The translations under genes and the position numbers were made by a program. This document shows, piece by piece, positions 9,170-64,000 of a stretch of DNA of 64,000 nucleotides. Every line of letters begins with the position of its first letter. Position 1 is the first letter of the stretch. Below the pieces are notes generated by a model, which did no database searches, was not told the origin of the DNA, and was given only the letters and a program-made list of their open reading frames with translations. The stretch is taken from the NCBI GenBank assembly GCA_015075445.1, contig JABTUJ010000042.1, positions 3,732-67,731 on the forward strand, in the 5' to 3' direction. Source of the stretch: Verrucomicrobiales bacterium. Its GTDB lineage: Bacteria > Verrucomicrobiota > Verrucomicrobiia > Limisphaerales > J093.

Positions 9170-9402
9170 GCCTCCGCGAGGAGGCTGTCGATCAGTCGCC
9201 CCCCCACCTCAGGGTCGTATTCCTCCTGCGCCAGCCGTTTGCCGAGGTCCAACCTCGGTCGCCGCGCCGGGGCACCCTCCCGCACGTACCGCCCGTGAAC
9301 CCTCCCGTAACTGGTGACCAGCACGGACCCCCCGGCCGGAAGGTCGTTGGTGATCGGCCCGAACTGCTTGGTGAACTCCGCCACCGACACCGTCTTCTTC
9401 AT
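9166..9402 (-). CDS. Phd/YefM-like antitoxin
   Basis: 78 aa. MKKTVSVAEFTKQFGPITNDLPAGGSVLVTSYGRVHGRYV fits the Phd/YefM N-terminal pattern. Overlaps the downstream PIN-like gene. Confidence 0.55.
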   Translation of the reverse strand: MKKTVSVAEFTKQFGPITNDLPAGGSVLVTSYGRVHGRYVREGAPARRPRLDLGKRLAQEEYDPEVGGRLIDSLLAEA

Positions 9403-9545
9403 GTCGGATAGGTTATCGGATTTCTCGCCACCGTCAACCGGAACTCAACCCCGGCAGCACGCCCGGTGACCCGCCCTCCGCGCCGCCGCAGCAGATGCAT
9501 CAGCAGGTTTGCGTTTCCGCCCGCGCCCCGGCAGACTCGCCGCGA

Positions 9546-11156: not shown

Positions 11157-11157
11157 C

Positions 11158-11246
11158 GAAGGACCACGGACCACGGACCACGGACCGCGGGCTAAGGACC
11201 AACGACCATCAACAACGCATCACGGGTCACGCATCACGCATCACGG
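11158..11246. repeat. Heptanucleotide array (GGACCAC x4, then ACGCATC-like)
   Basis: ggaccac ggaccac ggaccac ggaccgc ... acgcatc acgggtc acgcatc acgcatc. It spans the gap between the metG stop and the 3' end of the epimerase gene, and encodes the last codons of the epimerase. Confidence 0.85.
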
Positions 11247-12129
11247 AAATATGTCCTTCCTCAAACAACTGCTCCAACATCTGCAAAAGCCCCTGCCCCA
11301 TGTCCACATAATAATTGGTGGTCAGTTTGCGCCCCACGCGGGGATGGAAGGCGTAAGGCGTCATCTGGTAATGGCTGTTTTCCGGGCCGGTGGCGGGTTG
11401 GTATTGGATGTGCAACGGCCGTCCCAACATCTCGCCGAACATCGTAAACAAATCCCGCAGCCGGATAGGGTGATGGCCGGTCAACACCACATGTTGATTG
11501 GCAAACTCCTCCGCCAGCGCGTCCACGCTCAACCGGGCGGCGTCTTCCACATGAATATACTCGCGGCTGTCTTCCGGCGTGCCCACATGCTCAATTTGCC
11601 CCGTCACCGCGGCCTGCCGCAGCAGCCGGTAGACGCCATTGCTGGCATCCGCGCGCGGGCCATACAAACTGCCATAACGCAAAATGGTGTACTCCAGCCC
11701 AAACTGCTGCTGATACTCCTCAATAAACGCCTCACACGCCTGTTTGCTGCACCGGTAGAATCCCCCGGCACGGCTGTACACATAGACCGTGCTGGCAAAC
11801 ACAAACCGGCTGACCCCATTGGCCCGCGCCGCCTCTAAAAAGTTGAGCGTACCCATGATGTTCAGTTCGGCGGTAGTGATGGGCTGGCTCTTGGCGGCGT
11901 TCAAGTCGGCCAGGGCGGCCAGGTGAAAAATGGCATCCTGCCCGGCTACGGCTTCGGCTACGGCCGTGCCATCGCGCATATCCGCCACCACCATCCGCTG
12001 CCTGGCTTGCAGGTAAGGCGACGGCCGTACATCAAACACCGTCACCCCATACCCCCGCGCCGTCAGCACATCAGCAATATGGCTACCCAAAAAACCGGCC
12101 CCGCCCGTCACCAACACTCGTTGTATCAT
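11227..12129 (-). CDS. NAD-dependent epimerase/dehydratase family protein (lower G+C than its surroundings)
   Basis: MIQRVLVTGGAGFLGSHIADVL (Rossmann GxxGxxG) ... YCRSKQACE (YxxxK). Sampled 60-nt lines give about 50-60% G+C, against about 70% in neighbouring genes. Confidence 0.85.
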   Translation of the reverse strand: MIQRVLVTGGAGFLGSHIADVLTARGYGVTVFDVRPSPYLQARQRMVVADMRDGTAVAEAVAGQDAIFHLAALADLNAAKSQPITTAELNIMGTLNFLEAARANGVSRFVFASTVYVYSRAGGFYRCSKQACEAFIEEYQQQFGLEYTILRYGSLYGPRADASNGVYRLLRQAAVTGQIEHVGTPEDSREYIHVEDAARLSVDALAEEFANQHVVLTGHHPIRLRDLFTMFGEMLGRPLHIQYQPATGPENSHYQMTPYAFHPRVGRKLTTNYYVDMGQGLLQMLEQLFEEGHISVMRDA

Positions 12130-12139
12130 CGCCATCAAG

Positions 12140-12212
12140 AGTGGGGTGAGCAGGAGAAGGGGTGAGGGGGTGAAAATCACCTGCTCACCCCCTCACCTGC
12201 TCACCTGCTCAC
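12140..12212. repeat. Imperfect palindrome built from GGTGAGC/GCTCACC words
   Basis: ggggtgagcaggagaaggggtgagggggtgaaaatcacctgctcaccccctcacctgctcacctgctcaccc, immediately upstream of the epimerase start. Confidence 0.75.
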
Positions 12213-12213
12213 C

Positions 12214-12345
12214 CGTCGACTCCTCCGCGACGTGGGTTACGCGGGCTGGGTCGCCCTCGAAATGGAGGGCAAGGAAGGCCGACCTCGCCGTCCCCCAAGG
12301 CATCGCCACCTGCGCCGAGCCGTTCGGACCCGTTTGGTGCTCCTG
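12214..12345 (+). pseudogene. 3' remnant of a xylose-isomerase-like TIM-barrel (sugar phosphate isomerase/epimerase) gene
   Basis: LLRDVGYAGWVALEMEGKE followed in another frame by ADLAVPQGIA. This matches the usual C-terminus (GY.GwvslE.Eg.e....vp.si) of that family. No N-terminal part is present upstream. Confidence 0.4.
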
Positions 12346-12365
12346 CCCGTCCCCCCTTTCCCGCA

Positions 12366-14229
12366 ATGGCCGAACCAGCCCGCCCCACCCGTCCCCGAAC
12401 GACAACGCCTGGACGTGGACGTAATACCGTCGGGTTCGGCCCCGCCACGCGGGATTCCTCACGACGTTGTCGCGCCAGCGCTGCTCCATCGGACGGCGCG
12501 CCGCCGCGGGTCGAGAGCGCGGTCGTACCCGGCCTGCCGCCCGGGTGGTGTGTTACGGGGCGCGCCCGATGACCTCAGCTGGTGTCGGGCGTCGTTACCC
12601 GCCCGCGCCTTGCGGGAAGTTGGCCGACCTCGACACCGCTGGCATCCCCATGGCCGTGCCGTGGGCGAGGAGAAAGGTCCACATGCCTGCTCGATCCGCA
12701 CAACGCCAGCCGGCGGTCGGCCGCGCTCGCAGCCGACGATTCGTTGATCCGCGCCGCGAAGGCGTGCGCCCGGCGACCACCACGCCCTCGACCTGCGCGG
12801 ACACCCGGTTCCTGCACAAGAAGGCGGGATGATCTTCTCCATGGGCCAGTTCGGCGCTTCGGTGGAGTCCAGCGCCCGGGTGCAGGCTCCGGCACGGTCA
12901 GATCTGGCGGGCACACCCGCCGCTGAAGCCCTCCTGGATGGCCAGCGCGTCACCGGCATCCGGCTCCTGGACCAGGGCGTGGACAAGCAAGGACGCCCTG
13001 TGGACGGGTTCGCCCCCGGCATGGACATCCACGCCGCCCTCACCGTAGTCGGCGATGGCCCCGTCGGCCCGATCGGCCGGCAACTCGACGCGCACTTCGG
13101 CCTCCCGCAAGGCCACCACACCCGCGACTGGGCAGTCGGCATGAAGTTCGTTGTGGACCTTCCCGAGAACACCCCGCTCCAGCCCGGCACCGTATGGCAC
13201 ACGTTCGGCTACCCCGAACCGGAGATCTTCGGCTTCCTCTACGTCCATCCCGACCGCGTGGCGTCGCTCGGGATCTTCGTGCCGTCATGGTTCGACAGCC
13301 CGATGCGGACGGCCTACCGCTACCTCCAGCATTGGATGCTCCATCCCTATCTCTGGCGGCACCTCGAAGGCGGTCGCCTCCGTTCCTGGGGCGCCAAGAC
13401 CTTGGGCGAATCCGGGCGCCGCGGCGAACCCCATCTGGTCGGCGACGGCTATGCACGCATCGGCGAGGGCAGCGGCACGACCAATGTCCTCACCGGGTCG
13501 GGTGTGGATGAGGCCTGGGCCAGCGGGGTCCAGCTCGCCGAGGCCGTCCTCGAGCTGCTCGAGGCCGGGAAACCCTTCACCCGCGCCAACCTCGAAGCCA
13601 CCTACGTGCGCCGCCGCCGCGCCAGTTGGCTCGAGACGGAAGCTCGCGTGGCCGAGAAGTCCCGCGACGGGTTCCAGTCCGGCGTCGTGCGCGGGCTGAT
13701 CGGGATGGCCGTGGCGGGTCTGACCGACGGCCGGCTGGCGTTGGGTGGTGAGCCGCAGCCACCGTGGCAACGCCTGCCCAGCATCGAGGAGTACTATCGC
13801 GGACGCGTGGCTCCCGAGGAGATCGTCCGGCTTCGCGAGCAGTGCCGCGCGCAGGGCGTTTCCCTGCACAACGCCCTGATGGACGCGGCGGGTTGGCCGC
13901 CCATCCCCTACGACGGCCGGTTGCTGGTATCGCACCAGGACGCGCTGCTCCTCGGCGGCAAGGTGCAGGCCCCGCCGGGTTACGCCGACCACGTGGTATT
14001 CCTCTATCCCGAGCTGTGCGAGCGGTGCGGAACCAAGATCTGCATCGAAGCCTGCAGCGGTCAGGCCATCACGCCGGGCGAAGCCGGCACGCCGGCCTTT
14101 GACCGTGAGAAATGCGTTCACTGTGGCGCGTGCCTCTGGAACTGCGCGCAACCCGTTCCGGGCCATCCCGACCAGATGAACATCGCGTTCCGCGCCGGCA
14201 CCGGCGGCCTCCACTCCGCCGAAAACTGA
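12366..14229 (+). CDS. Electron-transfer flavoprotein:quinone oxidoreductase (FixC/FixX-type fusion); first ~470 nt carries multiple frame changes
   Basis: An intact ORF 12829..14229 carries GDGPVGPIGRQL, HTFGYPEPEIFGFLYVHPD, and the ferredoxin end CERCGTKICIEACSG...CVHCGACLWNC...GGLHSAEN. Upstream pieces ERQRLDVDVI / VGFGPA / ASLPARALRE / DLDTAGIPMAVP / EEKVHM lie in different frames. Confidence 0.75.
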
Positions 14230-26423: not shown

Positions 26424-27860
26424 CGAAGGGAAGTTCCAAGGTCAAAGCGCAAAGCTCAAGGGAAGATCCAGGGCCCGAGACCGCAGGTGCCATCTGGACG
26501 GAACGCAGCGGCTGGAAGCTCCAAGGACAAAGTTCAAAGCTCAAGGGAAGGGCCAAGCTCAAGGGGACAAGCGCCCAGTGCGCGGCGACCAGGGTTGGGC
26601 TCGGCACCCTGGCACTTGGAGGTTGAAGCTTTCCTTGAGCTTTGAGCTTTGACCTTGGAGCTTCCGTCCTTCCCTTGAGCCTTGAGCTTTGACCTTGGAG
26701 CTTCCGTCCTTCCCTTGAGCTTTGAGCTTTGACCTTGGAGCTTCCGTCCTTTCCTTGAGCTTTGAGCTTTGACCTTGGAGCTTCCGTCCTTTCCTTGAGC
26801 TTTGAGCTTTGACCTTGGAGCTTCCGTCCTTTCCTTGAGCTTTGAGCTTTGACCTTGGAGCTTCAGTCCTTTCGCCCAGGCTTTGAGTTGACCTTGGAGC
26901 TTCCGTCTTTCAGGCCTTGAGCTTTGACGCGGAGCTTCCGTCCTTTCTTTGCCAGGCTTTGAGCTTTGAGCTTCCGTCCTTTCATGAGCTTTGAGCTTTG
27001 ACGGAGCTTTCGTCCTTTCGCCAGGCTTTTGAGCTTTGGACTTGAGCTTCGTCCTTTTGAGCCATGAGCTTTGACGGAGCTTCAGTCCTTTCGCCAGGGC
27101 GCTGACGCTTGGAGCTTCCGTCCTTTCCTTCAGGCCTTGAGCTTTGACCTTGGAGCTTCCGTCCTTTCCGCCGAGGCTTGAGCTGACTTTGAGCTTCGTC
27201 CTTTCGCTGAGTTGAGTTTTGGACCTTGGAGTTTGTCCTTTCATGAGCAGCAGGCTTTGACCTTGGGCTTCCGTCCTTTCCTTGAGCTTTGAGCTTTGAC
27301 GCGGAGCTTCCGTTCTTTACAGCGGGCTTTGAGCTTGACGGGCTTCGTCCTTTCGCGGGCTTTGAGCTTTTGACGCGGAGCTTCCGTCCTTTCCTTGAGC
27401 CAGCAGCTTTGACGGGCTTCCGTCCTTTCGCAGGCAGCGAGCTTTGACTTTGGAGCTTCCGTCCTTCCCATTGAGCTTTGAGCTTTGACGCGGGCTTCCG
27501 TCCTTCCTTGAGCTTTGAGCTTTGACCGCCGGAGCTTCGTCCTTTCAGCCAGGCTTTGAGGCTTTGACCCGGGCTCTGTCCTTTTCAGAGCCTTGAGCTT
27601 TGACCTTGGAGCTCCGTCCTTTCCTTGAGCCTTGAGCTTGACCTTGAGCTTCCGTCCTTTCGCCAGGCTTTGAGCTTTGTGACCTTGAGCTTCCGTCCTT
27701 TCGCCAGGCTTGAGCTTTGACCTTGGAGCTTCCGTCCTTTCCTTGAGCCTTGAGCTTTGACCTTGGAGCTTCCGTCCTTTCCTTGAGCCTTGAGCTTTGA
27801 CCTTGGAGCTTCCGTCCTTTCCTTGAGCTTTGAGCTTTGACCTTGGAGCTTCCGTCCTTC
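26424..27860. repeat. Satellite-like tandem array of a 40-bp unit (about 31 forward copies plus about 2 inverted copies)
   Basis: Unit CTTCCGTCCTTTCCTTGAGCTTTGAGCTTTGACCTTGGAG. There is exact 40-nt phasing at 26661-26861 and at 27729-27849. The central copies are degenerate. Inverted copies lie at 26427-26565. Confidence 0.95.
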
Positions 27861-51892: not shown

Positions 51893-52657
51893 ATGAACCA
51901 TCGGAAATCGTTTTCCATCGAATCGCCCATGCGCCGCCGGCACCCGGCGCCTCACCCCCCCGGCTTCACCCTCATCGAGTTGCTCGTCGTCATCGCCATT
52001 ATCGCGATCCTCGCCGGCATGCTCCTGCCCGCCCTGAGCAAAGCCAAGGCCAAGGCCAGCCAGACGTACTGTCTCAACAGCCAGAAACAGATCGGTCTGG
52101 CCGTGAACATGTACGTCCCCGACTACCGCGACCGCATCCCGCTCTGCAAGAACTGGGGCAAGGCCTGGAAAGGCGACCATGACCTCCGCCCCGAGGACCT
52201 CTGGATGCCGGAACTGCTCCAGCCCTACATCGGCACCAACACGGTCAAACCCAAGACCACCAAGCGCAGCGAACACAAGCCCACCAGCGGCATCTTCGCC
52301 TGCCCTTCTGGCCTCAAGGCCCGCATCCCCTCGGGCGAACCCGGCTCGTCCTTCACCCGCGAGTTCTTCTTCGACAACGACGGCGTCACCTACGTCTGGA
52401 ATCATATCTACCTCACCAAGGACCGGTCCTCCTACGAGGTGAAAAAGCCCGTCAGCGGCCGTTCCGCCAACGACATCCCCATCCCCACCAAGGCTTGCCT
52501 GGTCTGGGAAATCCCCTACTGGAACTACCGCTACATGCCCCACAGCCAGGGCATCAACATCGTCTGTGCCGACGGCCACGCCGAGCGCGTCAAGGGCAGT
52601 CCCAACGAGTACGACTGGTGGGCCTACCACAGCCGCGATGGCTGGGAGCTGGACTGA
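51893..52657 (+). CDS. Prepilin-type N-terminal cleavage/methylation domain protein (H-X9-DG)
   Basis: [33 protein letters not shown] ... [17 protein letters not shown]. Confidence 0.85.
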
Positions 52658-52708
52658 TCCTCGCCCCCCGCCCCCCCCACTCTCCCAAACCTGCCGATAC
52701 CCTAACGA

Positions 52709-55165
52709 ATGCCGAACGAACCACAGCACATGAACACCCCTGTCGCATCCCGCCCCACCGCGCGTGCCCACCGTCACCGACCGGCCCCGCCTGGACGAAT
52801 CGCCCTGCTCGCCGCGCTCGTCCTCGGCGCCGCCCCGCTGGCCCAGGCGCAGGAAACGGTCATCGCCTACGCCGTTCCCGCCGGCACTGCCGGCAACCAG
52901 AACTTCGGCGGCACCCTGGGCATGGACTTCGACGTCAACAACCCGATCATCGTCAAGCGCATCGGTGTGTTCGATGATAACTCGGACGGCCTCTTCCTCA
53001 CTATCACCGCCAAGCTCTGGGACCGCTCCGACCCCTTCAATCCGATCGAGTTGATCTCCATCGACTTCTCGCCCGATGACCCCGGTGAACTGGTCGGCGG
53101 CAGCCGCTTCAAACCGCTCACCGAACCCCTCCGCCTCGAAGTCGGGTTCCAGGGGACCATCCACGCCGAGGGCTACGGCGCGGAGGAACGGCTGCGCAAT
53201 GTGCTCAGCGACCCCGCCAACATCGTGTGGACCACCCATGACGGAAATGGCTCCATCGCGTTCGTCGGCGGCAGCCGGTACGGAACCACCGCCCAATGGT
53301 ACCCGGGGACCGTCGACCAAGGTCCTGCCGCCCGGTACGCCGCCGGCACTTTCGAATACGAAACCACCCCGCCACTCGCCCCCGGACGCCCGGTCGTGAC
53401 CCTGCAACCCGGCAACCAGCAAATCAGCGTGACCTGGGCTGCCATCACCCAACCCGCCCCCGCGGCCACCTACCGTGTCCTCCGGGCCGCCGCCGCCGAA
53501 GGTCCCTTCACCCAGGTCGCCGAGGTGACCGAGACGAGCTACGTCAACACCGGCCTCGTCAACGGCACCGTTTACTTCTATGTCGTGCGCGGTGTCACCG
53601 CCGGCGGGAGCGCGGGTCCCGACTCGGCCGTCATGAGCGCCGCCCCCTATGCCCCGTTGCCCGACAGCCAGGCGATTGCCTACCTCACCCCGGCAGGGAC
53701 GGCTGGCGTCCAGAACTTCGGCGGTGCCTTCGGTCTGGATTTCGATGTCTACAACGCCATTGTCGTCCAGCAACTGGGCGTCTTCGACGATGACTCGGAT
53801 GGCCTGAAGCTGCCGCTCACCGCGCGCATCTACAACCGCGAGACTTGGGAGGTCCTCGCCGAACTCTACTTCCTCCCGGAAGACCCCGGCGTCCTCATCG
53901 AAGGCATGCGCTTCAAAGCCCTCACCCCGCCCCTCCGCCTCGAGCCGGGCTTCCAGGGTGTGATCGAAGCCGACGGCTACGGTGCCGAGGAACTCGTGTT
54001 CAACACCGGCGGCCGCCCGGACGACGTGGCTCGAGTCGTCACGAATGACGGCAACGGCTCGCTCCTCTTCGTCGGCACCGGCCGCTATTCCGTCGACCCC
54101 TTGTTGTTCCCCAACTCGCCTGACGGTGGCCCCGCCAACCGCTACGGTGCCGGGACCTTCCTCTACGAAACCACGGCGCCCACCCGCCCCGGCCTGCCCG
54201 TCCTGCAGGTCCTCCTCCCCGCCGAGGATGCCCGCGCTTCCCTCTCCTGGAACGAAGTCACCAAGCCCCTCGCCGCCGCCCAGTACCGGCTGTTCCGTGC
54301 CACGAGCGCCGACGGTCCCTGGACCCAGGTCACCGAAACCCCGGCCCTGTCCTATCAGGACACCGGCCTGGCCAATGGCACCCAGGTCTTCTACAAGGTC
54401 GTCGCCGTCGGAGCCGGCGGACAGACCAGCGCCGACTCGAACCTCGTCACCGTGACCCCCAACCCGCGCGCCGCCGGCATTGCCTATATCAATCCCGAAC
54501 TGAAGGAGGGCAACCAGGCGTTCGGCGGTTCGCTCGGCATGCACTTCAACGTCGCGCGGTCCATCCAGATCACCAGACTCGGAGTCTACGACGAATACGG
54601 CGACGGCGTCTTGAACCTCACTCTGCGCGCCTCCGTCTGGAACCGCCAAACCCGGGAGAAGTTGGCCGAACTCGAGTTCACCCCGGAGAGCCCGGGCGAA
54701 CCCACGGGCGGCAGCCTCTTCAAGACCCTCCCGTCGCCTCTGGTCCTCTCCGCCGGCTTCCAGGGCACCATCGTCGCCTACGGCTACGGCGCCGGAGAAC
54801 GCCTGTTCAACACCGGCAACCGCCCCGACGACGTAGCCCTCCTGGCCACCTTCGACGGCGGCTCGCTCATGTTTGTCGGCGCTAGTGCCTACTCGGCCAC
54901 GCCAGGTGACTTCCCCGGCGTCGCGGACGGCGGCCCCGCCAACCGCTATGCCGCCGGCACCTTCTACTTCGAACCCCGGACCGATGAACCGCCCACGATC
55001 ACCATCGGTCGCAGCGCCGACAAGGTCAGGATCACCTGGACCGGCAGTGGCGCCCTCGAAGGTGCCCCCGCCGTCACCGGGCCCTGGACCCCTGTCGCGG
55101 GCGCGACCTCCGGCATCGAACTCGCGCCCGTTGGCGCCGGCCAGTTCTTCCGCGTCAAGCAGTAG
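52709..55165 (+). CDS. Secreted protein with a threefold internal repeat (unknown ~190-aa module, each followed by an Fn3-like segment)
   Basis: Modules begin IAYAVPAGTAGNQNFGGTLGMDFDV / IAYLTPAGTAGVQNFGGAFGLDFDV / IAYINPELKEGNQAFGGSLGMHFNV. Each continues LGVFDD.SDGL ... GFQG.I.A.GYGAEE ... GPANRYAAGTF. Confidence 0.8.
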   Translation: MPNEPQHMNTPVASRPTARAHRHRPAPPGRIALLAALVLGAAPLAQAQETVIAYAVPAGTAGNQNFGGTLGMDFDVNNPIIVKRIGVFDDNSDGLFLTITAKLWDRSDPFNPIELISIDFSPDDPGELVGGSRFKPLTEPLRLEVGFQGTIHAEGYGAEERLRNVLSDPANIVWTTHDGNGSIAFVGGSRYGTTAQWYPGTVDQGPAARYAAGTFEYETTPPLAPGRPVVTLQPGNQQISVTWAAITQPAPAATYRVLRAAAAEGPFTQVAEVTETSYVNTGLVNGTVYFYVVRGVTAGGSAGPDSAVMSAAPYAPLPDSQAIAYLTPAGTAGVQNFGGAFGLDFDVYNAIVVQQLGVFDDDSDGLKLPLTARIYNRETWEVLAELYFLPEDPGVLIEGMRFKALTPPLRLEPGFQGVIEADGYGAEELVFNTGGRPDDVARVVTNDGNGSLLFVGTGRYSVDPLLFPNSPDGGPANRYGAGTFLYETTAPTRPGLPVLQVLLPAEDARASLSWNEVTKPLAAAQYRLFRATSADGPWTQVTETPALSYQDTGLANGTQVFYKVVAVGAGGQTSADSNLVTVTPNPRAAGIAYINPELKEGNQAFGGSLGMHFNVARSIQITRLGVYDEYGDGVLNLTLRASVWNRQTREKLAELEFTPESPGEPTGGSLFKTLPSPLVLSAGFQGTIVAYGYGAGERLFNTGNRPDDVALLATFDGGSLMFVGASAYSATPGDFPGVADGGPANRYAAGTFYFEPRTDEPPTITIGRSADKVRITWTGSGALEGAPAVTGPWTPVAGATSGIELAPVGAGQFFRVKQ

Positions 55166-55179
55166 CGCCCGACACCGCG

Positions 55180-55217
55180 GGCGGGAGGGCCCGATCCCCA
55201 AACGGTGCCCTCCCGCC
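55180..55217 (+). terminator. Stem-loop after the repeat-protein gene
   Basis: ggcgggagggc - 16 nt - gccctcccgcc (11-bp stem), 15 nt after the stop. No U tract. Confidence 0.35.
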
Positions 55218-55268
55218 TCCGTCCTCCAGCCTCCCGATCTGCGGGCCACCCCGAAACCCGCCACGCCC

Positions 55269-56288
55269 ATGTCCCGCCCGCTCCTCACCAACCGCCGTCG
55301 CTTCCTCGAAGCCACCGTCGCGATCGCGGCCGCCCCCGGCCTGACCGGGGGACTCGGCCACACCCGCTCACAACCTCTGCCCTCCACCCCCCAACCCTCG
55401 TCCATCGCTCCCATGAAAATTGGATTCCACACCGACGCCTTCAACTCGGCCTATTGGTCCTTCGAGAAATGCCTGGACTGGGCCAAACGCAACCACGTGT
55501 CCTTCATCGAGTGCGGGCTCATCGACGGCGTAAGCTGGATCCACGGCCTCGGCTATCAGCCCCACGTCGCCCTCTACGAAGATCCCGCCCTCCTCCGCCG
55601 CAAGATGGACAAGTACGGCGTCCGCTTCTCCCAGGTCGACGCCGCGTACCCGCTCTCCCAGGCCGATGGCCCCCTCCGCGGCGTCCCCTACGTCCTCAAG
55701 TCCATTGCCTGGGCGGCGCAGATCGGCTGTCCTTGCGTGGACACTACCGACGGTCTCCATGCCCCCGAAGGCCTCGCGGACAAGGAAGCCATGGCCATGA
55801 TGAAGCGAAGCTACCACCAGATCCTCGAAGTCGCCGAAGCCCACCAGGTCATCGTCAACATCGAGCCTCACGGCTACTTCACCACCCGACCCGAGTTCAT
55901 GGCCGAGATGCTCGCCTTCTCCGACAGCCCCTTCCTCCGCATGAACATGGACACCGGCAACACCTACATCGCCGGCCAGGACCCCGTCGCCTTCCTCAAG
56001 CGCTTCCTCAAACGCGTCAGCCACGTTCACATCAAAGATGTCTCCGAGTCCCTCGCCAAAGCCCTCCGCGGCGGCATGACCGGCATCGCAGTCAGCCATT
56101 GCGCCCTCGGCGACGGCGTCAACAAGGACAACATCCGCCAGTGCCTCGCCCTCCTGCGCGACGCCGGGTATTCCGGCGTGCTCAGCATGGAATGCGAAGG
56201 CGCCAGCGGCCCCATGATCGAACAATCCCTCGCCTGGCTCCGAAGCACCCTCCAGGACCTCGGCATCCCCGAAGCCCACGCCAGCTAA
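55269..56288 (+). CDS. Xylose-isomerase-like TIM-barrel protein (sugar phosphate isomerase/epimerase) with TAT-type signal
   Basis: MSRPLLTNRRRFLEATVAIAAAPG...KIGFHTDAFN...VNIEPHGYF...HVHIKD...GYSGVLSMECEG. Confidence 0.8.
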   Translation: MSRPLLTNRRRFLEATVAIAAAPGLTGGLGHTRSQPLPSTPQPSSIAPMKIGFHTDAFNSAYWSFEKCLDWAKRNHVSFIECGLIDGVSWIHGLGYQPHVALYEDPALLRRKMDKYGVRFSQVDAAYPLSQADGPLRGVPYVLKSIAWAAQIGCPCVDTTDGLHAPEGLADKEAMAMMKRSYHQILEVAEAHQVIVNIEPHGYFTTRPEFMAEMLAFSDSPFLRMNMDTGNTYIAGQDPVAFLKRFLKRVSHVHIKDVSESLAKALRGGMTGIAVSHCALGDGVNKDNIRQCLALLRDAGYSGVLSMECEGASGPMIEQSLAWLRSTLQDLGIPEAHAS

Positions 56289-56326
56289 CTTGGGAGTCTC
56301 CTACTCCAGATGGAACCGCGACAAGA

Positions 56327-56401
56327 CTGTAGGCGCCGACGTGAGGAGGCGAAGTCGCGTTGCCCCGGACGCACGACGCCTCCTCACGTCGGCGCCTACA
56401 G
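56327..56401. repeat. REP-like hairpin, GTAGGCGCCGACGTGAGGAGGCG family
   Basis: Perfect 25-nt arms ctgtaggcgccgacgtgaggaggcg / cgcctcctcacgtcggcgcctacag around a 25-nt loop. Confidence 0.9.
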
Positions 56402-56636
56402 CGGGTAGGGAACACCCAGATTCGGCCGCCCACCCCCAACCCACCACCGCTTCATGAAACCGAAGGCAGAAGGAAGACTGCAGAATGAAGAAGATGTAGC
56501 CGTCCTGGCCGGTCCACGGCCGATGAGCACCGCCGAAGTAAACCGACCGCTTCCCACGGCATCGCTTCATGCGCCCTGTGGTTCAGGTTTCCAGCCTGCG
56601 CGTTGTGGTGCGGGCTTCCAGCCTGCACCGCGGTGG

Positions 56637-57503
56637 ATGGTTCTCCTTCTCCTTCTTCTCCTCCTGGGGACCACCCTCGCTCAGGCTGCGCCCTCCCCAC
56701 CCCCTCCCAAGTTCTACGCGTACTGCGTCGAAGTCGGCGTCCCCGGCGTGACCCCCCGCCCGTGGCCCGACCAGGCCACCCTCCTCCGCCAACTCGGCTA
56801 CGACGGCGGCGGCTTCGAACTCCCGCTCGACACCACCCTCGCCACCCACCTGCGCGCGTTCGACGACGCCGGCCTCGACGTCTACCTCGTCTGGACGACC
56901 CTCAACGTCAACCCGGCGTCCCCCGCCTACGATCCCCGCCTGCCCGACGCCCTCCGCCAGCTCAAGGGCCGCCCCACCACCGTCAGTCTCATCCTCCGCG
57001 GACTGCCCCCGGCCGACCCCAAGGGCCGCGCACCCGCTCTCCGCGCCCTTCGCGAACTCGGCGACGTTGCGGCTCAAGCCGGCCTGCGACTCTCCATCTA
57101 CAATCATGTCAGCGATTGGACCGAAAGCCTCCCCTTCATCGTGGAGCTCGTCCGCGAGCTGAACCACCCCCAGGTCGGCTTCAACTTCAACCTCTGCCAC
57201 TGGCTCAAGGTCGACGCGGCCCACGACTGGCGGCCGCTGCTGCGTGAACACGCCGCGAAACTCTTCTGCGTCACGATCAACGGCGCCACCGTTGGCGCCC
57301 AGACCTGGACGCACGGCCTCATCCGGCCCCTCGACGAAGGCGACTTCGACAACGCCCCTTTGCTCGCCGCGCTCAACGCCATCGGCTACCGCGGCCCCGT
57401 CGGTCTCATGTGCTACGGCGTCCCCGGCGATCCCCGCGACCATCTCGCCCGCTCGATGGCTGTCTGGCGCCGACTTCACTCTCCCCAACCGTCGCAACCC
57501 TAA
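56637..57503 (+). CDS. Xylose-isomerase-like TIM-barrel protein, secreted
   Basis: MVLLLLLLLLGTTLAQA...LGYDGGGFEL...LSIYNHVSDW...GFNFNLCHWL...GYRGPVGLMCYG. The start is placed after the hairpin repeats at 56578-56629. Confidence 0.7.
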   Translation: MVLLLLLLLLGTTLAQAAPSPPPPKFYAYCVEVGVPGVTPRPWPDQATLLRQLGYDGGGFELPLDTTLATHLRAFDDAGLDVYLVWTTLNVNPASPAYDPRLPDALRQLKGRPTTVSLILRGLPPADPKGRAPALRALRELGDVAAQAGLRLSIYNHVSDWTESLPFIVELVRELNHPQVGFNFNLCHWLKVDAAHDWRPLLREHAAKLFCVTINGATVGAQTWTHGLIRPLDEGDFDNAPLLAALNAIGYRGPVGLMCYGVPGDPRDHLARSMAVWRRLHSPQPSQP

Positions 57504-57514
57504 AGCCCTCGCTC

Positions 57515-58843
57515 ATGTCCACACCCGCTCCTGTCCCTCCGTCGCCTTCCCCGCTCACCCGCCGCGGTTTCCTCCGGACCACCGCCACCGCCACCGGCGC
57601 CACCCTGGCCCTGGGCACGCTTGATGTCGCTCGCTTCGCTCATGCCGCCGGCAGCGGCGTCATCAAGATCGGCATGCTCGGTTGCGGCGGCCGCTGCTCC
57701 GGCGCCGGCGCCCAGGCCCTCTCCCTCGGGAAGGACGTCCAACTCGCCGGCATGACCGACGTATTCGCCAGCCGCATGCAGACCAAACGCGCCTACTTCC
57801 GCGAGCACCATCCCGACCAGTTCATCGCCACCGCAGACACCTGCACCTCCGGCCTCGATGGCTACCAGGCGGTCATCGCCGCCAGCGACGCGGTGCTCAT
57901 CGCCTGCGCCTCGAAGTATCACCCGTTCTATGCCGAGAAAGCGCTCGAGGCGGGCAAGCACGTCTTCATCGAGAAACCCCACGCCATCGACCCCGCCGGC
58001 TGTCTCCGCCTCAAACGCTGCGCCGCCCTCGCGCGGGAGAAGAACCTCTCCTTCGTCTCCGGCCACGAGAGCCGTTACCACTTCCCTTACCAGGAAATGG
58101 TCAAGCGCATCCATGACGGCGCCATCGGTCAGATCGTCGCCATCCAGTCCATGTTCCTCCGCGCCCCCTACCAGACCGTCGCCCGCGAGCCCGGCCTGAA
58201 CGAGATCGAGTACCAGTTCGCCAACTGGTACCACTTCCGCTGGCTCTCCGGCGACGACGTCACCCAGTCGCTCGTCCACAACTTCGATCGCATGCGCTGG
58301 GTCTTGCGCGAGGAGAACCCCAAGTGGTGCTTCGGATTGGGCGGCCGATCGAGCGCCTTCGGCGAGGTCTACGGCGACATGTTCGACCACGCCAGTGTCA
58401 CCTACGAATTCGGCAGCGGCACCCGCCTCTACGGTCTCTGCCAGACCCGCACCGGCTGCTACGCGAACTGGGACGACATCGTCATGGGCACCAAGGGCGT
58501 CTGCTACTGGAATGCCTGCCGCTTCGAAGGCGAAACCAAGTGGCGTTACCAGGGCCCCTCCAACGACCAGCACACCGAGGAGCAGAAGATCCTCATCGGC
58601 TCGATCCGCGACGGCCGCCCCGTCAACCACAGCGACACCATGATCGACAGCACCTACACGGCGATCATGGGCCAGATCGCGACCTACACCGGCAAGCCCG
58701 TGACCTGGGAGGAGATGATGGCCGCCACCTTCGAGTTCGAGCCCAAGATCGCCGACGTCCGGCTCAACATGCCTTCGCCCATCCATCCCGATGCCCAGGG
58801 CAACTACCCGCTGCCCGTCCCCGGCCACACCAACTACTTCTAA
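57515..58843 (+). CDS. Gfo/Idh/MocA family oxidoreductase with twin-arginine signal
   Basis: LTRRGFLRTTATATGATLALG...IKIGMLGCGGRCSG...HVFIEKPHA. Confidence 0.85.
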   Translation: MSTPAPVPPSPSPLTRRGFLRTTATATGATLALGTLDVARFAHAAGSGVIKIGMLGCGGRCSGAGAQALSLGKDVQLAGMTDVFASRMQTKRAYFREHHPDQFIATADTCTSGLDGYQAVIAASDAVLIACASKYHPFYAEKALEAGKHVFIEKPHAIDPAGCLRLKRCAALAREKNLSFVSGHESRYHFPYQEMVKRIHDGAIGQIVAIQSMFLRAPYQTVAREPGLNEIEYQFANWYHFRWLSGDDVTQSLVHNFDRMRWVLREENPKWCFGLGGRSSAFGEVYGDMFDHASVTYEFGSGTRLYGLCQTRTGCYANWDDIVMGTKGVCYWNACRFEGETKWRYQGPSNDQHTEEQKILIGSIRDGRPVNHSDTMIDSTYTAIMGQIATYTGKPVTWEEMMAATFEFEPKIADVRLNMPSPIHPDAQGNYPLPVPGHTNYF

Positions 58844-58853
58844 CCGGGCCCGC

Positions 58854-60299
58854 ATGCCTGCCGCCCTCACCGCCGCGGCGCGTTACCCGCAGCGCCTCGC
58901 CCGCTACACCACCGCCCTGCGGAACGAGCAGCCCGACCGGGTCCCCCTCCGCCCGTTCGTCGCGGAATTCACCGGGGTCCACGCCGGGTACACCTGCCAG
59001 CAGATGGCGCACCAGTACCCCCTCGCCTTCGAAGCCGCCTGCCGTTGCGCCGCCGACTTCGACTGGGACGCCGTCGTGCCCAACATGATCGCCACCTGGA
59101 CGGGAATGACCCAAGCCATGGGCCTCAAGTACTACCTGACCCCGGGCATCGATCTGCCCCCGAATGTCGGCCATCAGTACCTCGAACCCCCCGCCGACAC
59201 CGCCTTCATGCAGGCCGACGAGTACGACGCCCTCATCGACGACCCGACCAGCTTCCTCTACACCACCTGGCTCCCCCGCGTCACCGCCGCCATCCGCGCC
59301 CCCGGCTTGCCGGACGCCGTCGCTCGCGACCTCTCGCTCGTCAAGGGCGCCATGGCCATGAGCCAGTTCTTCAGCGACTGGACCCGCCAGGAACAGCGCC
59401 TGCGCGAGGAATGCGGCACCGTCGCCGCCATCGCCGGCATGCTCAAAGCCCCCCTCGACCTCCTCGCCGACAAACTCCGCGGTTACGTCGGCCTCGCCGA
59501 AGACCTCCTGGTCCGACCCGCCCAAGTGCGGGCGGCCTGTGAAGCCCTCATGCCGCACCTCGAGTACTTCGCGCGCGTCACGGCCGACCCGCAGCGCAAC
59601 GTGCCGATCGGCTTCTGGATGCACCGCAGTTGCGTCCCGCTCATCTCCTTCAAGCATTTCAACGAGATCGGCTGGCCGACCCTCAAACCCATCATCCAGG
59701 AACTCTGGGCCCACGGCCACCAGACCCTCTTCTACGCCGAGGGCAACTGGGACCATCACCTCGACGCCTTCGCCGAACTCCCCGACCGCAGCATCGTCTA
59801 CCACGTGGACCGCGGCGACCTCGCCAAGGCACACCGCGTGTTCGGGCACAAGTTCTGTCTCAGCGGCGGCATCCCCAACACCCTCCTCAGCTTCGGCTCT
59901 CCCGCCGAGGTGCGCGCCGCCTGCCGGCAGGCCATCGCCACCGCCGCCCACGACGGCGGCTACATCATGGACGCCAGCGCCATCATCCAGAACGATGCCC
60001 GCGTCGAGAACCTCCGCGCCCTGACCGAAGCCACCCTCGAGTTCGGGGGCTACTCCCGCGGACACAGCACCCCGCTCCCGGCTGGCGGGCCTCGACCTCT
60101 GGAAACCGACGCCCGCCCCGGCACATTTTTCACCCCGCGCCCCGACGATCGCCGCCCGCCCGGCGCCTGTATTCCCTGGCGCGATGTCCTTCCCCAACTG
60201 CCGCCGATCACCGGCGACCCACGCCTGTGCCAGCAGGTGTGGGAATCTGTCGACGCCCTCGGGTACTTCTATGTCTGGTGGATCCTGCTCGCCTTCTGA
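58854..60299 (+). CDS. Uroporphyrinogen decarboxylase (URO-D)-like family protein
   Basis: DRVPLRPFVAEFTG...FYAEGNWDHHLDAF...GGIPNTLLSFGSPAEVRAACRQAI...GGYIMDASA. The family assignment is by pattern only. Confidence 0.5.
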   Translation: MPAALTAAARYPQRLARYTTALRNEQPDRVPLRPFVAEFTGVHAGYTCQQMAHQYPLAFEAACRCAADFDWDAVVPNMIATWTGMTQAMGLKYYLTPGIDLPPNVGHQYLEPPADTAFMQADEYDALIDDPTSFLYTTWLPRVTAAIRAPGLPDAVARDLSLVKGAMAMSQFFSDWTRQEQRLREECGTVAAIAGMLKAPLDLLADKLRGYVGLAEDLLVRPAQVRAACEALMPHLEYFARVTADPQRNVPIGFWMHRSCVPLISFKHFNEIGWPTLKPIIQELWAHGHQTLFYAEGNWDHHLDAFAELPDRSIVYHVDRGDLAKAHRVFGHKFCLSGGIPNTLLSFGSPAEVRAACRQAIATAAHDGGYIMDASAIIQNDARVENLRALTEATLEFGGYSRGHSTPLPAGGPRPLETDARPGTFFTPRPDDRRPPGACIPWRDVLPQLPPITGDPRLCQQVWESVDALGYFYVWWILLAF

Positions 60300-60419
60300 G
60301 CCGGACGGTCCGCCTGGGTCCGGCCCGGCGTCCAATGCTGGAACCACCGGCTGGATCTCACCATCCCGAACCCGAGGCCGTGGGCCGGTTCAGTTCTTCC
60401 TTGGGGGTGACGATGGCCC

Positions 60420-61073
60420 TCATCGGTCTCCCGGGCGGAGACGCCCCTGGCGCCGCAACTCGAGGGCGACAAAGGGAGCACGACGCTCGAGATAGGGCAA
60501 ATCAATGTGCCCTGACTCGTAACTCGATACATACTCCTCACGCGCTCTGCAGAACTCGATGCCGTTGAGGAGTTCAAGCGTCGCATTGACTGCGGCCGCA
60601 TTTGCCGAGGGACTACGCGGACCTTGAATCACCTGAAATCCCACCAGTTCCAGAGAGAACCAGCCGGGCTTGCAGGTGAAGGGATCAATCAGGCTCGTCA
60701 GGTCCTTCTTCCGGGCGTTGATACCTGCGGCACACAGCCGGTAGTTGAGCCACTCGTAGATGGCGTCCCACCGTTTCGACTTCGGGAGCATGTGGTCCAC
60801 GCTGGGATTGCCAGTGCCGTGTTCGAGATAGAGCGCAAGGAAGGCGCAACGGCGGTCGTATGACTGAAGGAGGTCGTCCAGGGCGTCCCGCCAATACGGA
60901 GGGAAGCTGCCCGCAGGGATGTCCTGCTCACGGGTCGCAACCCGCCGGCGCCTGCGACCCCGGCGGGGCACCCGCGCACCATGGCCCGTCAACTCGGCAA
61001 TGGCCGAGAGCCCTTTCTGCCGCACCTTGGCATCGAAACCCGGGGGCTCGGGTGCAGGTGTGACGGGAATCAT
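60420..61073 (-). CDS. HNH-like nuclease, TIGR02646/PtuB-like (217 aa)
   Basis: CAFLALYLEHGTGNPSVDHMLPKSKRWDAIYEWLNYRLCAAGINARKKD fits the C.YCE...DH..PKs....eW.NL..aC..CN..K pattern, but only 2 of the 4 Cys are present. The ATG overlaps the ATPase stop (ATGA at 61070-61073). Confidence 0.6.
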   Translation of the reverse strand: MIPVTPAPEPPGFDAKVRQKGLSAIAELTGHGARVPRRGRRRRRVATREQDIPAGSFPPYWRDALDDLLQSYDRRCAFLALYLEHGTGNPSVDHMLPKSKRWDAIYEWLNYRLCAAGINARKKDLTSLIDPFTCKPGWFSLELVGFQVIQGPRSPSANAAAVNATLELLNGIEFCRAREEYVSSYESGHIDLPYLERRAPFVALELRRQGRLRPGDR

Positions 61074-62386
61074 CGATCCCCTCCGCCTCGCTGTCGGCGA
61101 TCTTGACGATGCCTCTCCAGGAACTTGCCCCACCGGACCCAGAAGGGATCGATGTCTGGCAGACCTGCCTTCCGCAGCCCCGCGTCTGCGTCGTCGATCG
61201 CTTTGCGTGTCGGGGCGGCCTCCCGCAAGACGGCCCGTGCCTGCTCGATGGCCCTTTCCGCTTCCAGGGATCGTGCGCACTTGAGGTCGAATGCCTCGCT
61301 CGTCAGCCAATTGGACACGTCCCCGCGGGGTACAAAATCCCGCCGCCGCAACACGACGTTCTTCCATTCCAAGTCCAAGTCAAACCAGGCATCGCGTGTG
61401 CTATCGAAGAACGGTTCGGCCGACGCGAGGATCAGTGGCGAGTGAGTGGCCGCGATGAGTTGGATGGCCGCCTGATCGTGAAGCGATGTCGCAATGCTCA
61501 ACAGCGAACTGAGGATCGTCCGCTGCCAACGCGGGTGCAGATGGCTCTCCAACTCATCGAACAGCAACACAACCTGGCGGGTCGGTTCCTCGCCCAACAA
61601 CTCCGAGGCTCGCACATGCTCACTCCAGGACCACAGGAGCATATAGGCGAGGCCGACGACGCGACGAACACCCGAGGACGCGTGCAGGATGGGCACAGTC
61701 TCGGCATATGGCATGCGGACGGAGGGAATGTCGCGCACGTCGTCAACCGAGATGCGGACCAGCGCCCCCACCTCAAACCGCTCCCCCGGAGGGGCCAAAC
61801 GCTCAACCACGGCCTCCATTCGCTTGGCGGTGTCCCCTCGCTCTCGAATCCAGCCCGCCCAGTCGGTTAGCAGACCGTTACAGACCCGCGTGGTCTTGCC
61901 CCCCACCTCGACTTCGAGGCCGTCCCACACGTCCTTGGGAGCAAACACATAGCCCGCCAGACGATCTTGGACATCGATGCCCCCCTTGGACCTCCAGTAG
62001 TTCCTTGCGGGATCCCAGACAGAGAAACCGCCGTCAGCATGAGCATACACAACCAGCCCGGGGTTCCAGGGCCGACCGGCCCGGCCAACCCACGACTGCT
62101 CGCGGGCATCGTAGGCGCTCTCGTAATCCACTGACCGAGCCTTTCCCGTTAGCTTGAACGCAACGGTAGCTTTCTGCTTCGGGTCTGCCGGCCGTGCCGG
62201 ATAACCTGATGTCAATCGTCCATTCAGGTCATGCGGCCATTTCCGCGTGAGCACCCACCACGCCACGTCGAGCAAGAAGGACTTGCCGAGACCGTTGTCA
62301 CCGGTGAAGAGATTCAGGCGGTCAGCAAACTCCAAATCGAGTTTGGCGACAGGACCAATGTTTCTAAGATTCAGTGCTTTAAGCAT
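61070..62386 (-). CDS. AAA_15/21-type ABC-like ATPase, PtuA-like (438 aa)
   Basis: MLKALNLRNIGPVAKLDLEFADRLNLFTGDNGLGKSFLL (Walker A), VVLLFDELESHLHP (Walker B), IAATHSPLI. GGAGAAG lies 7 nt upstream of ATG 62386. A/T-ending codons are common and G+C is lower. Confidence 0.75.
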   Translation of the reverse strand: MLKALNLRNIGPVAKLDLEFADRLNLFTGDNGLGKSFLLDVAWWVLTRKWPHDLNGRLTSGYPARPADPKQKATVAFKLTGKARSVDYESAYDAREQSWVGRAGRPWNPGLVVYAHADGGFSVWDPARNYWRSKGGIDVQDRLAGYVFAPKDVWDGLEVEVGGKTTRVCNGLLTDWAGWIRERGDTAKRMEAVVERLAPPGERFEVGALVRISVDDVRDIPSVRMPYAETVPILHASSGVRRVVGLAYMLLWSWSEHVRASELLGEEPTRQVVLLFDELESHLHPRWQRTILSSLLSIATSLHDQAAIQLIAATHSPLILASAEPFFDSTRDAWFDLDLEWKNVVLRRRDFVPRGDVSNWLTSEAFDLKCARSLEAERAIEQARAVLREAAPTRKAIDDADAGLRKAGLPDIDPFWVRWGKFLERHRQDRRQRGGGDR

Positions 62387-62956
62387 AATCAGCTTCTCCG
62401 CTCGTTGCCCATCCGGATGCAGCCACTGGCGCAACGGGTCCCCGGTCTTGACCGGTTGCACACCGGGATCTTCGCCCCGCACCTCGGTATCGCACTGTGT
62501 TGCGCGCGTTCGGGGGACGGCCTCCCCGAGTTCACAACCGAGCCCGCGTTGGCCATGACCCCGGCCGCGGCACCCGAAGCGACGGCCACGACGAGCGTGG
62601 TAGCCAAAGGTCGCCGAAGGGACCATCGTAAACCCTACGCACGGCAGACGGCGTTGATCATGCCCGCATCAGCCCGAAACTGCAGCAGAAAACGCGACCC
62701 ACAACACGGCGAAACCCATGCCGCTAATGTCAGAGGGAGTTCCCCGCCGAACCATCAGGTACGTGCGTGTCCTCCGGCCAGGTCTCCACCATGAATCGCC
62801 CTGACGTAGACGAGGTCGACCGGTGTTCCGGAACCACTCGAAACCAAGTGCCCTGCGCCTTGGCGAACAGGCCGGGAAGTTCAATGACCTCCGGATCCGT
62901 CTGCGACCGCCAGATCCTCCTGGCCTTCCGAGCCCTGCTGGCTACCCTCCCTCCCC

Positions 62957-63742
62957 ATGAACTCGTCACGCTTTCAACGGCTGAGCAGCCTCTTCCTGCT
63001 CCTGACAGTCTCCCCACTCCTTTGCCCCGGCGCGGTGTCACCCGCCGACCTCACCCCGCCCGCCGAGGGAACGCGCGTTCTGCTCGTCACTGGCATCGAC
63101 TACCCCGGTCATCCCTGGCAGGAGACCGCGCCGGCGCTCAAGGCCATCCTCGACCAGGACCCGCGCTTCAAGACCCGCATCGTCGAAGATCCGAACGCCC
63201 TGGCTTCCCCGAAACTCCAGGACTGGGACGTCGTCATCGTCCACTTCATGGACTGGGAAATCCCCGGGCCAGGCCCCGAGGCCCGCGAGAACCTCCGTCG
63301 CTTCGTCGCCGGTGGAAAGGGACTGATGCTCACCCACTTTGCCTGTGGCGCCTGGGACGGCAACGAATGGCCCGAATTCGCACGGTTAGCCGGTCGGGTC
63401 TGGGATCCCAAACTACGCGGGCACGATCCTCACGGGACCTTCCGCGTGGAGATGGCTGATCCCGACCACCCCATCACGCGGGGCCTGGAGCCGTTCGACA
63501 CGCTCGACGAACTCTATACGTGCCTCACGGGCGACACCCCCATCCACATCGTAGCCAAGGCCCGTTCGAAGGTTGACGGTCTGGACTACCCGATGGCCTT
63601 CGTCCTCGACTACGGCCAGGGCCGCGTCTTCCACACCGTGCTCGGTCACGACGCCCGCGCCTATGCCGCCCCCGGTGTCGGCGAACTCATGCGTCGTGGT
63701 TGTGCCTGGACCGCCCGCCTCTCCTCAGGGGTCAGTCAATAG
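62957..63742 (+). CDS. ThuA-domain (trehalose-utilisation-like) secreted protein
   Basis: RVLLVTGIDYPGHPWQET...DVVIVHF...GKGLMLTHFACGAW...HDPHGTFRVEM...DELYTCL...GRVFHTVLGHD. Confidence 0.8.
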   Translation: MNSSRFQRLSSLFLLLTVSPLLCPGAVSPADLTPPAEGTRVLLVTGIDYPGHPWQETAPALKAILDQDPRFKTRIVEDPNALASPKLQDWDVVIVHFMDWEIPGPGPEARENLRRFVAGGKGLMLTHFACGAWDGNEWPEFARLAGRVWDPKLRGHDPHGTFRVEMADPDHPITRGLEPFDTLDELYTCLTGDTPIHIVAKARSKVDGLDYPMAFVLDYGQGRVFHTVLGHDARAYAAPGVGELMRRGCAWTARLSSGVSQ

Positions 63743-63790
63743 TATTGTGCTTTTTCCGGTCTGGCTTTCAGGTTTCAGGGACTGTCCCCA
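63727..63790. repeat. AT-rich 62-64 bp hairpin element, copy 1
   Basis: ggggtcagtcaatagtattgtgctttttccggtctggctttcaggtttcagggactgtcccc. It supplies the last codons and the TAG stop of the ThuA-like gene. Confidence 0.9.
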
Positions 63791-63795
63791 GGGGT

Positions 63796-64000
63796 CTACC
63801 CGCGGACCCGCCGCCACAACACCGCCAGGCCACCGAGGCCAAGCAGGAGCCATGCCCCGTTCGGCTCGGGAATCGCGATGAAAGACTCCACTCCCGCTTC
63901 GAACTCTCCTAAGGGGTCAGTCAATAGTATTGTGCTTTTTCCGGTCTGGCTTTCAGGTTTCAGGGACTGACCCCACCGGGGAGAGTTGACATCGGTGGGG
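63796..64000 (-). CDS. PEP-CTERM sorting-signal tail (3' end of a gene or a gene fragment; open to the window edge)
   Basis: The minus strand reads ...GEFEAGVESFIAIPEPNGAWLLLGLGGLAVLWRRVRG, with the stop at 63796-63798. This is the classical PEP motif, TM helix and basic cluster. Upstream, the frame runs through repeat copy 2, so the gene's integrity is doubtful. Confidence 0.4.
   Translation of the reverse strand, partial: PTDVNSPRWGQSLKPESQTGKSTILLTDPLGEFEAGVESFIAIPEPNGAWLLLGLGGLAVLWRRVRG
63913..63974. repeat. AT-rich 62 bp hairpin element, copy 2
   Basis: It has the same sequence as copy 1, with a perfect 10-bp terminal stem ggggtcagtc / gactgacccc. Confidence 0.9.

Follow-up and report, generated by a model that had tools for sequence, protein, structure and literature searches.

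A stretch of 64,000 nucleotides of contig JABTUJ010000042.1 from a Verrucomicrobiales bacterium (assembly GCA_015075445.1), referred to here as the window, contains a two-gene locus that is very likely a stand-alone Septu type I anti-phage system. Its two open reading frames (ORFs), ptuA and ptuB, both lie on the minus strand at positions 60420-62386 and encode an ABC-type ATPase and an HNH nuclease, respectively. A Septu-like pair had been proposed at this site from a sequence-only reading of the window. This finding is real and its interpretation essentially right, and full-length matches to PADLOC models, a beta-beta-alpha model of PtuB and ten best Protein Data Bank (PDB) matches that are all PtuB now speak for it. 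It is a routine case of an already catalogued system.

The PtuA/PtuB gene pair

Both products gave full-length matches to PADLOC Septu models. PtuA matched PDLC00307 at E=3.5e-170, its residues 1-427 covering positions 1-421 of the 424 in the model, and PtuB matched PDLC00348 at E=2.7e-59, its residues 1-213 covering positions 1-194 of 198. Judged by these profile matches, the pair belongs to a subfamily that PADLOC already models. The two genes lie next to each other in one direction as an operon led by ptuA, and the same order is found in three other genomes. The earlier description of a 438-amino-acid ATPase overlapping a 217-amino-acid protein by ATGA, which left the strand unstated, was borne out, as were the motifs GDNGLGKS, LLFDELESHLHP and ATHSP in the ATPase and the core VDHMLPKS...EWLNYRLCAAGINARKKD in the small protein. 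The overlap places the ptuB start codon on the ptuA stop codon and points to translational coupling.

PtuA was matched by Pfam AAA_21 (1.5e-18) and AAA_15 (9.7e-16), both above their cut-offs, and by AAA_23 (3.2e-7). Walker A, a signature-like motif, Walker B and the H-loop are all present and kept among homologues (Table 1). In the signature-like motif, H235, A236, G239, R241 and R242 are invariant in a four-sequence alignment, and HASSGVRR may correspond to the LSDGQR signature of Ec78 PtuA (PMC12819146). The same alignment showed a strongly conserved C-terminus (DIDPFWVRW). Solved PtuA chains gave weak, local matches only in a sequence search (E=7e-6), and the stretch aligning to them is the Walker B/D-loop.

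The ptuA frame can be read 80 codons further upstream, from position 62626, to give a protein of 518 amino acids, and one public assembly annotates this longer version. The shorter form is nevertheless the correct one, because the N-terminus MLKALNLRNIGP, as read from the sequence, agrees with the ML[KE][AS]L start common to three PtuA homologues, because the PADLOC alignment starts at PtuA residue 1, and because a likely ribosome-binding site precedes its ATG. The codon-position content of guanine plus cytosine (G+C) in the extension (0.78/0.57/0.69) is also unlike that of the gene body (0.66/0.48/0.72), and the 518-amino-acid ORF is therefore best regarded as an over-extended gene call.

The pair recurs across Myxococcota, Betaproteobacteria and Verrucomicrobia. 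The PtuB homologues of Melittangium boletus, Burkholderia multivorans and Prosthecobacter each follow a gene for an AAA_21/AAA_15 ATPase, 418-450 amino acids long, and by the gene calls the two genes overlap by 4 nucleotides there too. These ATPases are 52-75% identical to the window PtuA and have the same N-terminus. Beyond the gene pair nothing is common to the three loci, and their neighbours are unrelated. About 500 bp downstream of the Burkholderia pair there is a gene for a UvrD-type helicase.

Table 1. Features of the ptuAB locus, of homologous loci and of two further genes. Positions are those of the window, except where a locus of another genome (L018-L020) is named.
Feature	Position	Strand	Basis or remark
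Lineage-specific segment with ptuAB	60296..63041		not in close relative L008
ptuA	61070..62386	-	438-aa ABC/SMC-type ATPase, Septu PtuA
ptuB	60420..61073	-	217-aa HNH nuclease, Septu PtuB
ATGA overlap, ptuB start codon on ptuA stop codon	61070..61073	-	read from sequence
GGAG, likely ribosome-binding site	62396..62399	-	9 nt 5' of ptuA ATG; sequence only
Upstream ptuA extension	62387-62626	-	Arg/Gly-rich; not in homologues
Walker A GDNGLGKS, PtuA residues 29-36	62279..62302	-	sequence; invariant in 4-sequence alignment
ABC signature-like HASSGVRR, PtuA residues 235-242	61661..61684	-	read from sequence
Walker B / D-loop LLFDELESHLHP, PtuA residues 274-285	61532..61567	-	sequence and 4-sequence alignment
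H-loop ATHSP, PtuA residues 313-317	61436..61450	-	sequence, PtuA-chain alignment, 4-sequence alignment
Predicted HNH core, PtuB residues 76-122 (C76, D93-H94, N110, C114, N119, K122)	60708..60848	-	model and conservation
Predicted PtuB C-terminal domain, residues ~136-217, two short strands then helices	60423..60668	-	model
Melittangium ptuAB	L018 6748-8654		66.3 vs 70.1% G+C host
Burkholderia multivorans ptuAB	L019 6703-8666		56.1 vs 65.3% G+C host
Prosthecobacter ptuAB	L020 6652-8654		52.6 vs 61.7% G+C host
AbiEii-family nucleotidyltransferase, 271 aa	2732-3547	-	PF08843 E=1.5e-9, 38.6 bits vs cut-off 22.5
Class III adenylate/guanylate cyclase, 507 aa	3563-5086	-	C-terminal domain PF00211 (Guanylate_cyc) E=2.4e-50

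PtuB family membership and predicted fold

Taken alone, the window PtuB performed poorly against generic models: Pfam HNH_4 was reached at E=0.053 only, no NCBIfam family was matched at E up to 1, and a phmmer search of the PDB sequences gave no match. The connection to HNH and PtuB proteins was therefore made through the family. A word-indexed search yielded 606 relatives of PtuB, and the window protein is identical to a 'hypothetical protein' deposited from a Verrucomicrobiales metagenome-assembled genome (MAG). Relatives at 55-73% identity come from Myxococcales, Archangium, Melittangium, Prosthecobacter and Burkholderia multivorans. A hidden Markov model scan of 1.84 billion cluster representatives, clustered at 50% identity, identified 1,293 clusters at E<=1e-3, of which 295 reached E<=1e-30.

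For conservation and family assignment, a diverse set of 115-123 relatives with less than 50% mutual identity was used, with 115 in most counts. TIGR02646 was matched by 107 of these 115 (best 3.4e-12), the NCBIfam PtuB model NF041761 by 92, Pfam HNH by 20 and HNH_4 by six. Against solved chains, a family profile found retron-Eco7 PtuB (4.4e-7), 9n69_F (4.8e-6) and Septu 8ee7_C (1.6e-5). The broad profile (A2) was required for this, as a narrow-clade profile (A1) gave sub-threshold Cas9 matches only. The fit to TIGR02646 that had been suggested for the small protein thus stands for its relatives and fails for the protein itself, which stays below the threshold. Its link to TIGR02646 is transitive, and the window PtuB is a divergent branch of the same superfamily.

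The quality of the structure prediction depended on the alignment supplied. With 32 close homologues (55-73% identical), AlphaFold gave a predicted local distance difference test score (pLDDT) below 50 at residues 73-121, and fold matches were not significant. With the diverse alignment of 115 sequences, PtuB was modelled at pLDDT 98 with a predicted template modelling score (pTM) of 0.91. In this model the core consists of a strand at 90-94 carrying D93-H94, a strand at 111-115 after N110 and a helix at 116-122 carrying N119 and K122, which is predicted to form a beta-beta-alpha-metal fold. All ten top Foldseek matches in the PDB, with E 1.5e-4 to 4.6e-3 and probability 1.00, were PtuB chains of type I-A retrons and E. 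coli Septu; they were followed by the HNH domains of NmeCas9 and CBASS Cap5, a phage HNH and McrA.

Conservation follows the same residues. N110 and N119 are invariant among the 115 diverse relatives, and C76, D93, H94 and K122 reach at least 90% conservation; W108, Y106 and R112 likewise belong, with D93, H94, N110, N119 and K122, to the near-invariant or invariant positions. The distance of 16 residues from H94 to N110 matches that between H75 and N91 of Septu EcB88 PtuB (PMC13096335). The C-terminal domain has modelled helices at 156-169, 172-186, 192-198 and 200-208, and in the family profile alignment positions 143-188 aligned to Septu 8ee7_C and 125-188 to Eco7 PtuB. By analogy with the docking role described for PtuB's C-terminal domain (PMC12819146, PMC12673091), this domain presumably docks on the PtuA C-terminus.

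The reduced cysteine set

In retron-Eco7 PtuB, the cysteines C43, C46, C78 and C90 are zinc ligands and required for defence (PMC12673091). That only two of the four usual cysteines remain in the window PtuB was confirmed by profile alignment, C76 and C114 being its only cysteines at Eco7-type ligand positions. The window sequence CAFLA (family consensus CAYlal) lies opposite CAYCE of Eco7 PtuB, so that C76 is aligned with C43 and L79 stands in place of C46. C114 follows the catalytic histidine by 20 residues and Eco7 C78 by 21, and because of this near-equal spacing C114 is likely to be the counterpart of C78.

Among the 115 relatives, C76 is conserved in 99%. A second cysteine (79/80) is found in 33 of them and a third (114/115) in 70, and none has a fourth. 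By pattern, 44 relatives were C-C-, 37 C---, 26 CCC- and seven CC--, and a Cys4 zinc finger was found neither in the window PtuB nor in any of the 115. The two-cysteine state is thus normal for a clade that exceeds 1,000 clusters, and it marks neither local decay nor a new subtype; the view of a degenerate site in a divergent subtype gives way to that of a typical member of a clade already modelled by PADLOC. Zinc-finger-less HNH domains include those of E. coli Septu PtuB and SpCas9 (PMC12673091). It is proposed by analogy that PtuB functions as a nuclease with no Cys4 zinc finger, as most of its clade would. It is rather unlikely that the zinc-less clade replaced the finger by another structural solution connected with a distinct substrate or PtuA gating, and so forms a functionally distinct Septu subtype.

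Proposed mode of action

The gene pair, its motifs, the predicted PtuB fold, the family membership and the lineage-specific insert were seen here; the mechanism is transferred from homologous systems. In published work, E. coli Septu PtuA forms a hexamer that holds PtuB (PMC12819146, PMC12673091, PMC13096335). Septu EcB88 requires the Walker A and B motifs of PtuA as well as H75 and N91 of PtuB, and its protection against phage depends on ATPase and HNH activity (PMC13096335). Every residue on which the E. coli Septu mechanisms rely is kept in the window PtuA and PtuB. By homology, the ATP-bound PtuA/PtuB complex would be the inactive state. Phage infection would lead to release or activation of PtuB, for which the trigger may be a phage protein such as a tail protein, ATP depletion, or the two combined. 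The putative beta-beta-alpha-metal site formed by D93-H94, N110 and N119 might then cleave nucleic acid, the candidate targets being DNA and tRNA-Tyr, of which the latter is the target in EcB88. Cleavage would arrest the infected cell and block phage production.

Genomic context and origin

On one side, ptuAB is flanked by genes for a URO-D-family protein, a Gfo/Idh/MocA oxidoreductase and a xylose-isomerase-like TIM-barrel protein, and on the other by a gene for a ThuA-family protein. That the neighbours are unrelated to the pair had been recognised, and their description as sugar-metabolism genes is only loosely apt. The window is collinear on both sides of ptuAB with a close relative, the Pedosphaerales MAG L008. 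By blastn, window positions 52001-60295 correspond to L008 1124-9425 at 90% DNA identity and positions 63042-63876 to L008 12612-13430 at 87%. Between the URO-D and ThuA genes, L008 holds 3.2 kb of unrelated, host-like plus-strand genes with about 70% G+C and no ptuAB. This slot (9426-12611) has no DNA similarity to the window segment 60296-63041; its contents include a Gfo/Idh/MocA-like ORF with a twin-arginine translocation (TAT) signal (9314-10090) and two ORFs without assignment (10933-11388 and 11406-11765). In the more distant genome L007, a ThuA-like gene follows directly after URO-D. The contents of the slot in L008 and L007 therefore hint that the junction between URO-D and ThuA may be a variable slot. 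As the window junctions were recovered at 99.9-100% identity in four independent assemblies, the arrangement is not a chimera.

The 5' ends of the ThuA genes differ between the two genomes (window 62957-63041, L008 12086-12611). The window ThuA has a signal-peptide-like N-terminus (MNSSRFQRLSSLFLLLTVSPLL...) encoded in DNA that is not homologous to L008, and the L008 protein has instead an N-terminal extension of about 160 amino acids. Since these ends are non-homologous, the event that brought ptuAB in, or that removed other genes, also remodelled the start of the neighbouring ThuA gene. When direct or inverted repeats were sought at the flanks as a sign of insertion, only short, chance-level matches turned up, and there is no tRNA gene within the window. 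At the DNA level, the parts of the segment outside the two genes (62387-63041 and 60296-60419) resemble neither the other ptuAB loci nor L008 nor any other part of the window.

Base composition is less telling than had been assumed. Sampled lines of about 43-55% G+C had been reported for the module against about 65-75% in neighbouring genes, and these figures proved wrong. Measured values were 50-73% for the 60-nucleotide lines of the module (mean 63%; elsewhere 67%) and 66-69% for the four nearest genes. As a whole the module has 62.2% G+C versus 66.8% for the window (standard deviation 2.1 for 2-kb windows), which places it within the lowest 3% of 2-kb windows. The G+C content at third codon positions (GC3) is 72% in ptuAB versus 80-90% in the four nearest genes, and A/T-ending codons are therefore relatively enriched, as had been stated, if far less than was implied. 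The lowest-G+C stretch of the window is found elsewhere, at 25.4-28.6 kb (58% over 2 kb), and encodes rhomboid, HAD-hydrolase and RecR proteins; an ORF within it on the minus strand (26534-27244) had no Pfam or PADLOC match. As this stretch of housekeeping genes is lower in G+C than ptuAB, composition alone is weak evidence, and low G+C by itself was rejected as a mark of an insert. In all four genomes examined, the window included, the pair lies 4-9 G+C points below its host.

Taken together, it is supported that ptuAB reached the Verrucomicrobiales genome horizontally as a self-contained two-gene cassette. The sequence-only reading was right about horizontal acquisition and overstated the compositional argument for it; the acquisition is better shown by the break in synteny with the otherwise about 90% identical L008, in which the pair is not conserved in position.

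Points against the assignment and alternative explanations

Several points weigh against the identification as a Septu system. The window PtuB alone stays below the thresholds of TIGR02646, NCBIfam PtuB and Pfam HNH. TM-scores to solved PtuB chains are moderate (0.42-0.57), and in structural alignments the window protein has only 12-17% identity with characterised PtuB proteins of Septu and retrons. The zinc finger essential in Eco7 is missing, so that details of folding or substrate may differ. A scan of the ptuAB operon for promoters and terminators gave none above shuffled expectation, the promoter search being of sigma-70 type, which covers Verrucomicrobia promoter types poorly.

Some of these points, namely the undetected promoter-like signal and the missing finger that retron-Eco7 PtuB needs for defence (PMC12673091), would also speak for a locus that does not primarily serve phage defence. 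It could be a selfish addiction cassette of a toxin-like kind, or an inactive remnant in decay, and Ec78 PtuAB expressed without its retron is toxic to E. coli (PMC12819146). This explanation is nonetheless improbable. Both ORFs are intact and all catalytic motifs are kept, and four samples yielded the same sequence at 99.9-100% identity. Across phyla the clade shows strong conservation (55-73% identity), with invariant active-site residues. A zinc-less HNH is functional in Cas9 and, as published, in E. coli Septu (PMC12673091), and the silent promoter scan loses weight with the poor fit of sigma-70 models to this phylum.

Still less probably, the pair is an orphan or variant effector from a type I-A retron, with PtuAB kept in check by reverse transcriptase and multicopy single-stranded DNA (msDNA). 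Retron I-A effectors are PtuA/PtuB homologues, many Ec78, Eco7 and Ec83 PtuB chains were among the best PDB matches, and the best NCBIfam match of the ATPase is 'retron Ec78 PtuA'. That match, however, scored 54.5 bits against a cut-off of 500, and the window PtuA has 438 amino acids versus 550 in retron-type PtuA chains, for which an N-terminal extension, a helical flap and an m loop are described as retron-specific elements (PMC12819146). Neither the upstream 570 bp nor the downstream 120 bp, beyond which lie the ThuA-like and URO-D-like genes, contains an ORF large enough for a reverse transcriptase, and a reverse transcriptase adjoins the pair in none of the three homologous loci inspected. 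Rfam gave no match in 59800-63300, so no msr-msd non-coding RNA family was seen. As there is no room for a reverse transcriptase, the locus is read as a stand-alone Septu and not as a retron I-A module.

Least probable of all is a merely superficial Septu likeness of another ABC-ATPase defence system such as PARIS (AriA/AriB) or a Gabija/OLD-like system, since the matches of the ATPase to PADLOC AriA (1.1e-29), GajA (1.9e-12) and other AAA_15/AAA_21 models are surpassed by about 140 orders of magnitude by the PtuA model, which covers the whole protein, the AriA match runs only through the common ATPase domain and the GajA match is only local, the partner is an HNH protein matching PtuB models only and not a TOPRIM/DUF4435 AriB, and the ATPase has neither a fused TOPRIM domain nor an adjacent GajB-type helicase. 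With no reverse transcriptase, AriB or GajB adjacent and a far better PtuA model, the retron, PARIS and Gabija assignments were all rejected.

Other candidates in the window

A further 41 ORFs with coding-like codon-position composition were scanned against PADLOC, and only two of them matched, an AbiEii-family nucleotidyltransferase and a class III cyclase. The nucleotidyltransferase gave partial PADLOC AbiEii matches (about 1e-7), and no AbiEi-type antitoxin gene was recognised adjoining it. The cyclase gene lies immediately upstream on the same strand, and a PADLOC PycC match (5.3e-11) from the pooled ORF scan was ascribed to it from its cyclase motif. An N-terminal region of about 270 amino acids is without assignment. 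As its composition is host-like (GC3 0.86), the protein is probably a generic signalling cyclase. Among the screened ORFs, ptuAB is thus the only complete and strongly supported defence system, and its ranking as the best candidate in the window holds.

Significance and comparison with known systems

The locus adds one unannotated Septu system, its protein deposited so far as 'hypothetical protein', to a poorly sampled phylum, and it provides a clean example of a defence cassette in a variable slot between conserved metabolic genes. It also draws attention to a very large PtuB branch in which the Cys4 finger is missing and the catalytic residues are fully conserved; conclusions from retron structures should therefore not be generalised to all Septu nucleases. 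Knowledge of how Septu works is not changed by it.

Compared with Septu type I as modelled by PADLOC (PDLC00307/PDLC00348), the window pair is alike in two-gene architecture, ATPase motifs, HNH core and helical C-terminal domain. Neither has an accessory gene, and nothing at the family level sets the window pair apart. E. coli Septu PtuAB (PDB 8EE4/8EE7/8EEA) likewise combines an ABC ATPase with an HNH nuclease, and its PtuB (8eea_G) has the same two-domain fold as predicted for the window PtuB (E=3.6e-4, TM 0.48) at only about 12% identity in the structural alignment; a Cys4 zinc finger is likewise reported to be missing from Septu PtuB (PMC12673091). PtuAB of type I-A retrons (Ec78/Eco7, Ec83) is homologous, and the CAY motif, (D/E)H and WxN of Eco7 PtuB can be aligned. 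In contrast to these retron proteins, the window PtuA is about 110 amino acids shorter, and the Cys4 set of Eco7 PtuB is reduced to C76 and C114. The HNH domain of Cas9 (Pfam HNH_4) likewise has a zinc-less beta-beta-alpha-metal core with the pattern C.Y...DH.LP.S...N...N..K, and the Nme and Ace Cas9 domains gave weak sequence and fold matches to the window PtuB below significance (E 0.05-0.5). Unlike the Cas9 domain, PtuB forms a protein by itself, carries a helical C-terminal domain of its own and has an ATPase as its partner.

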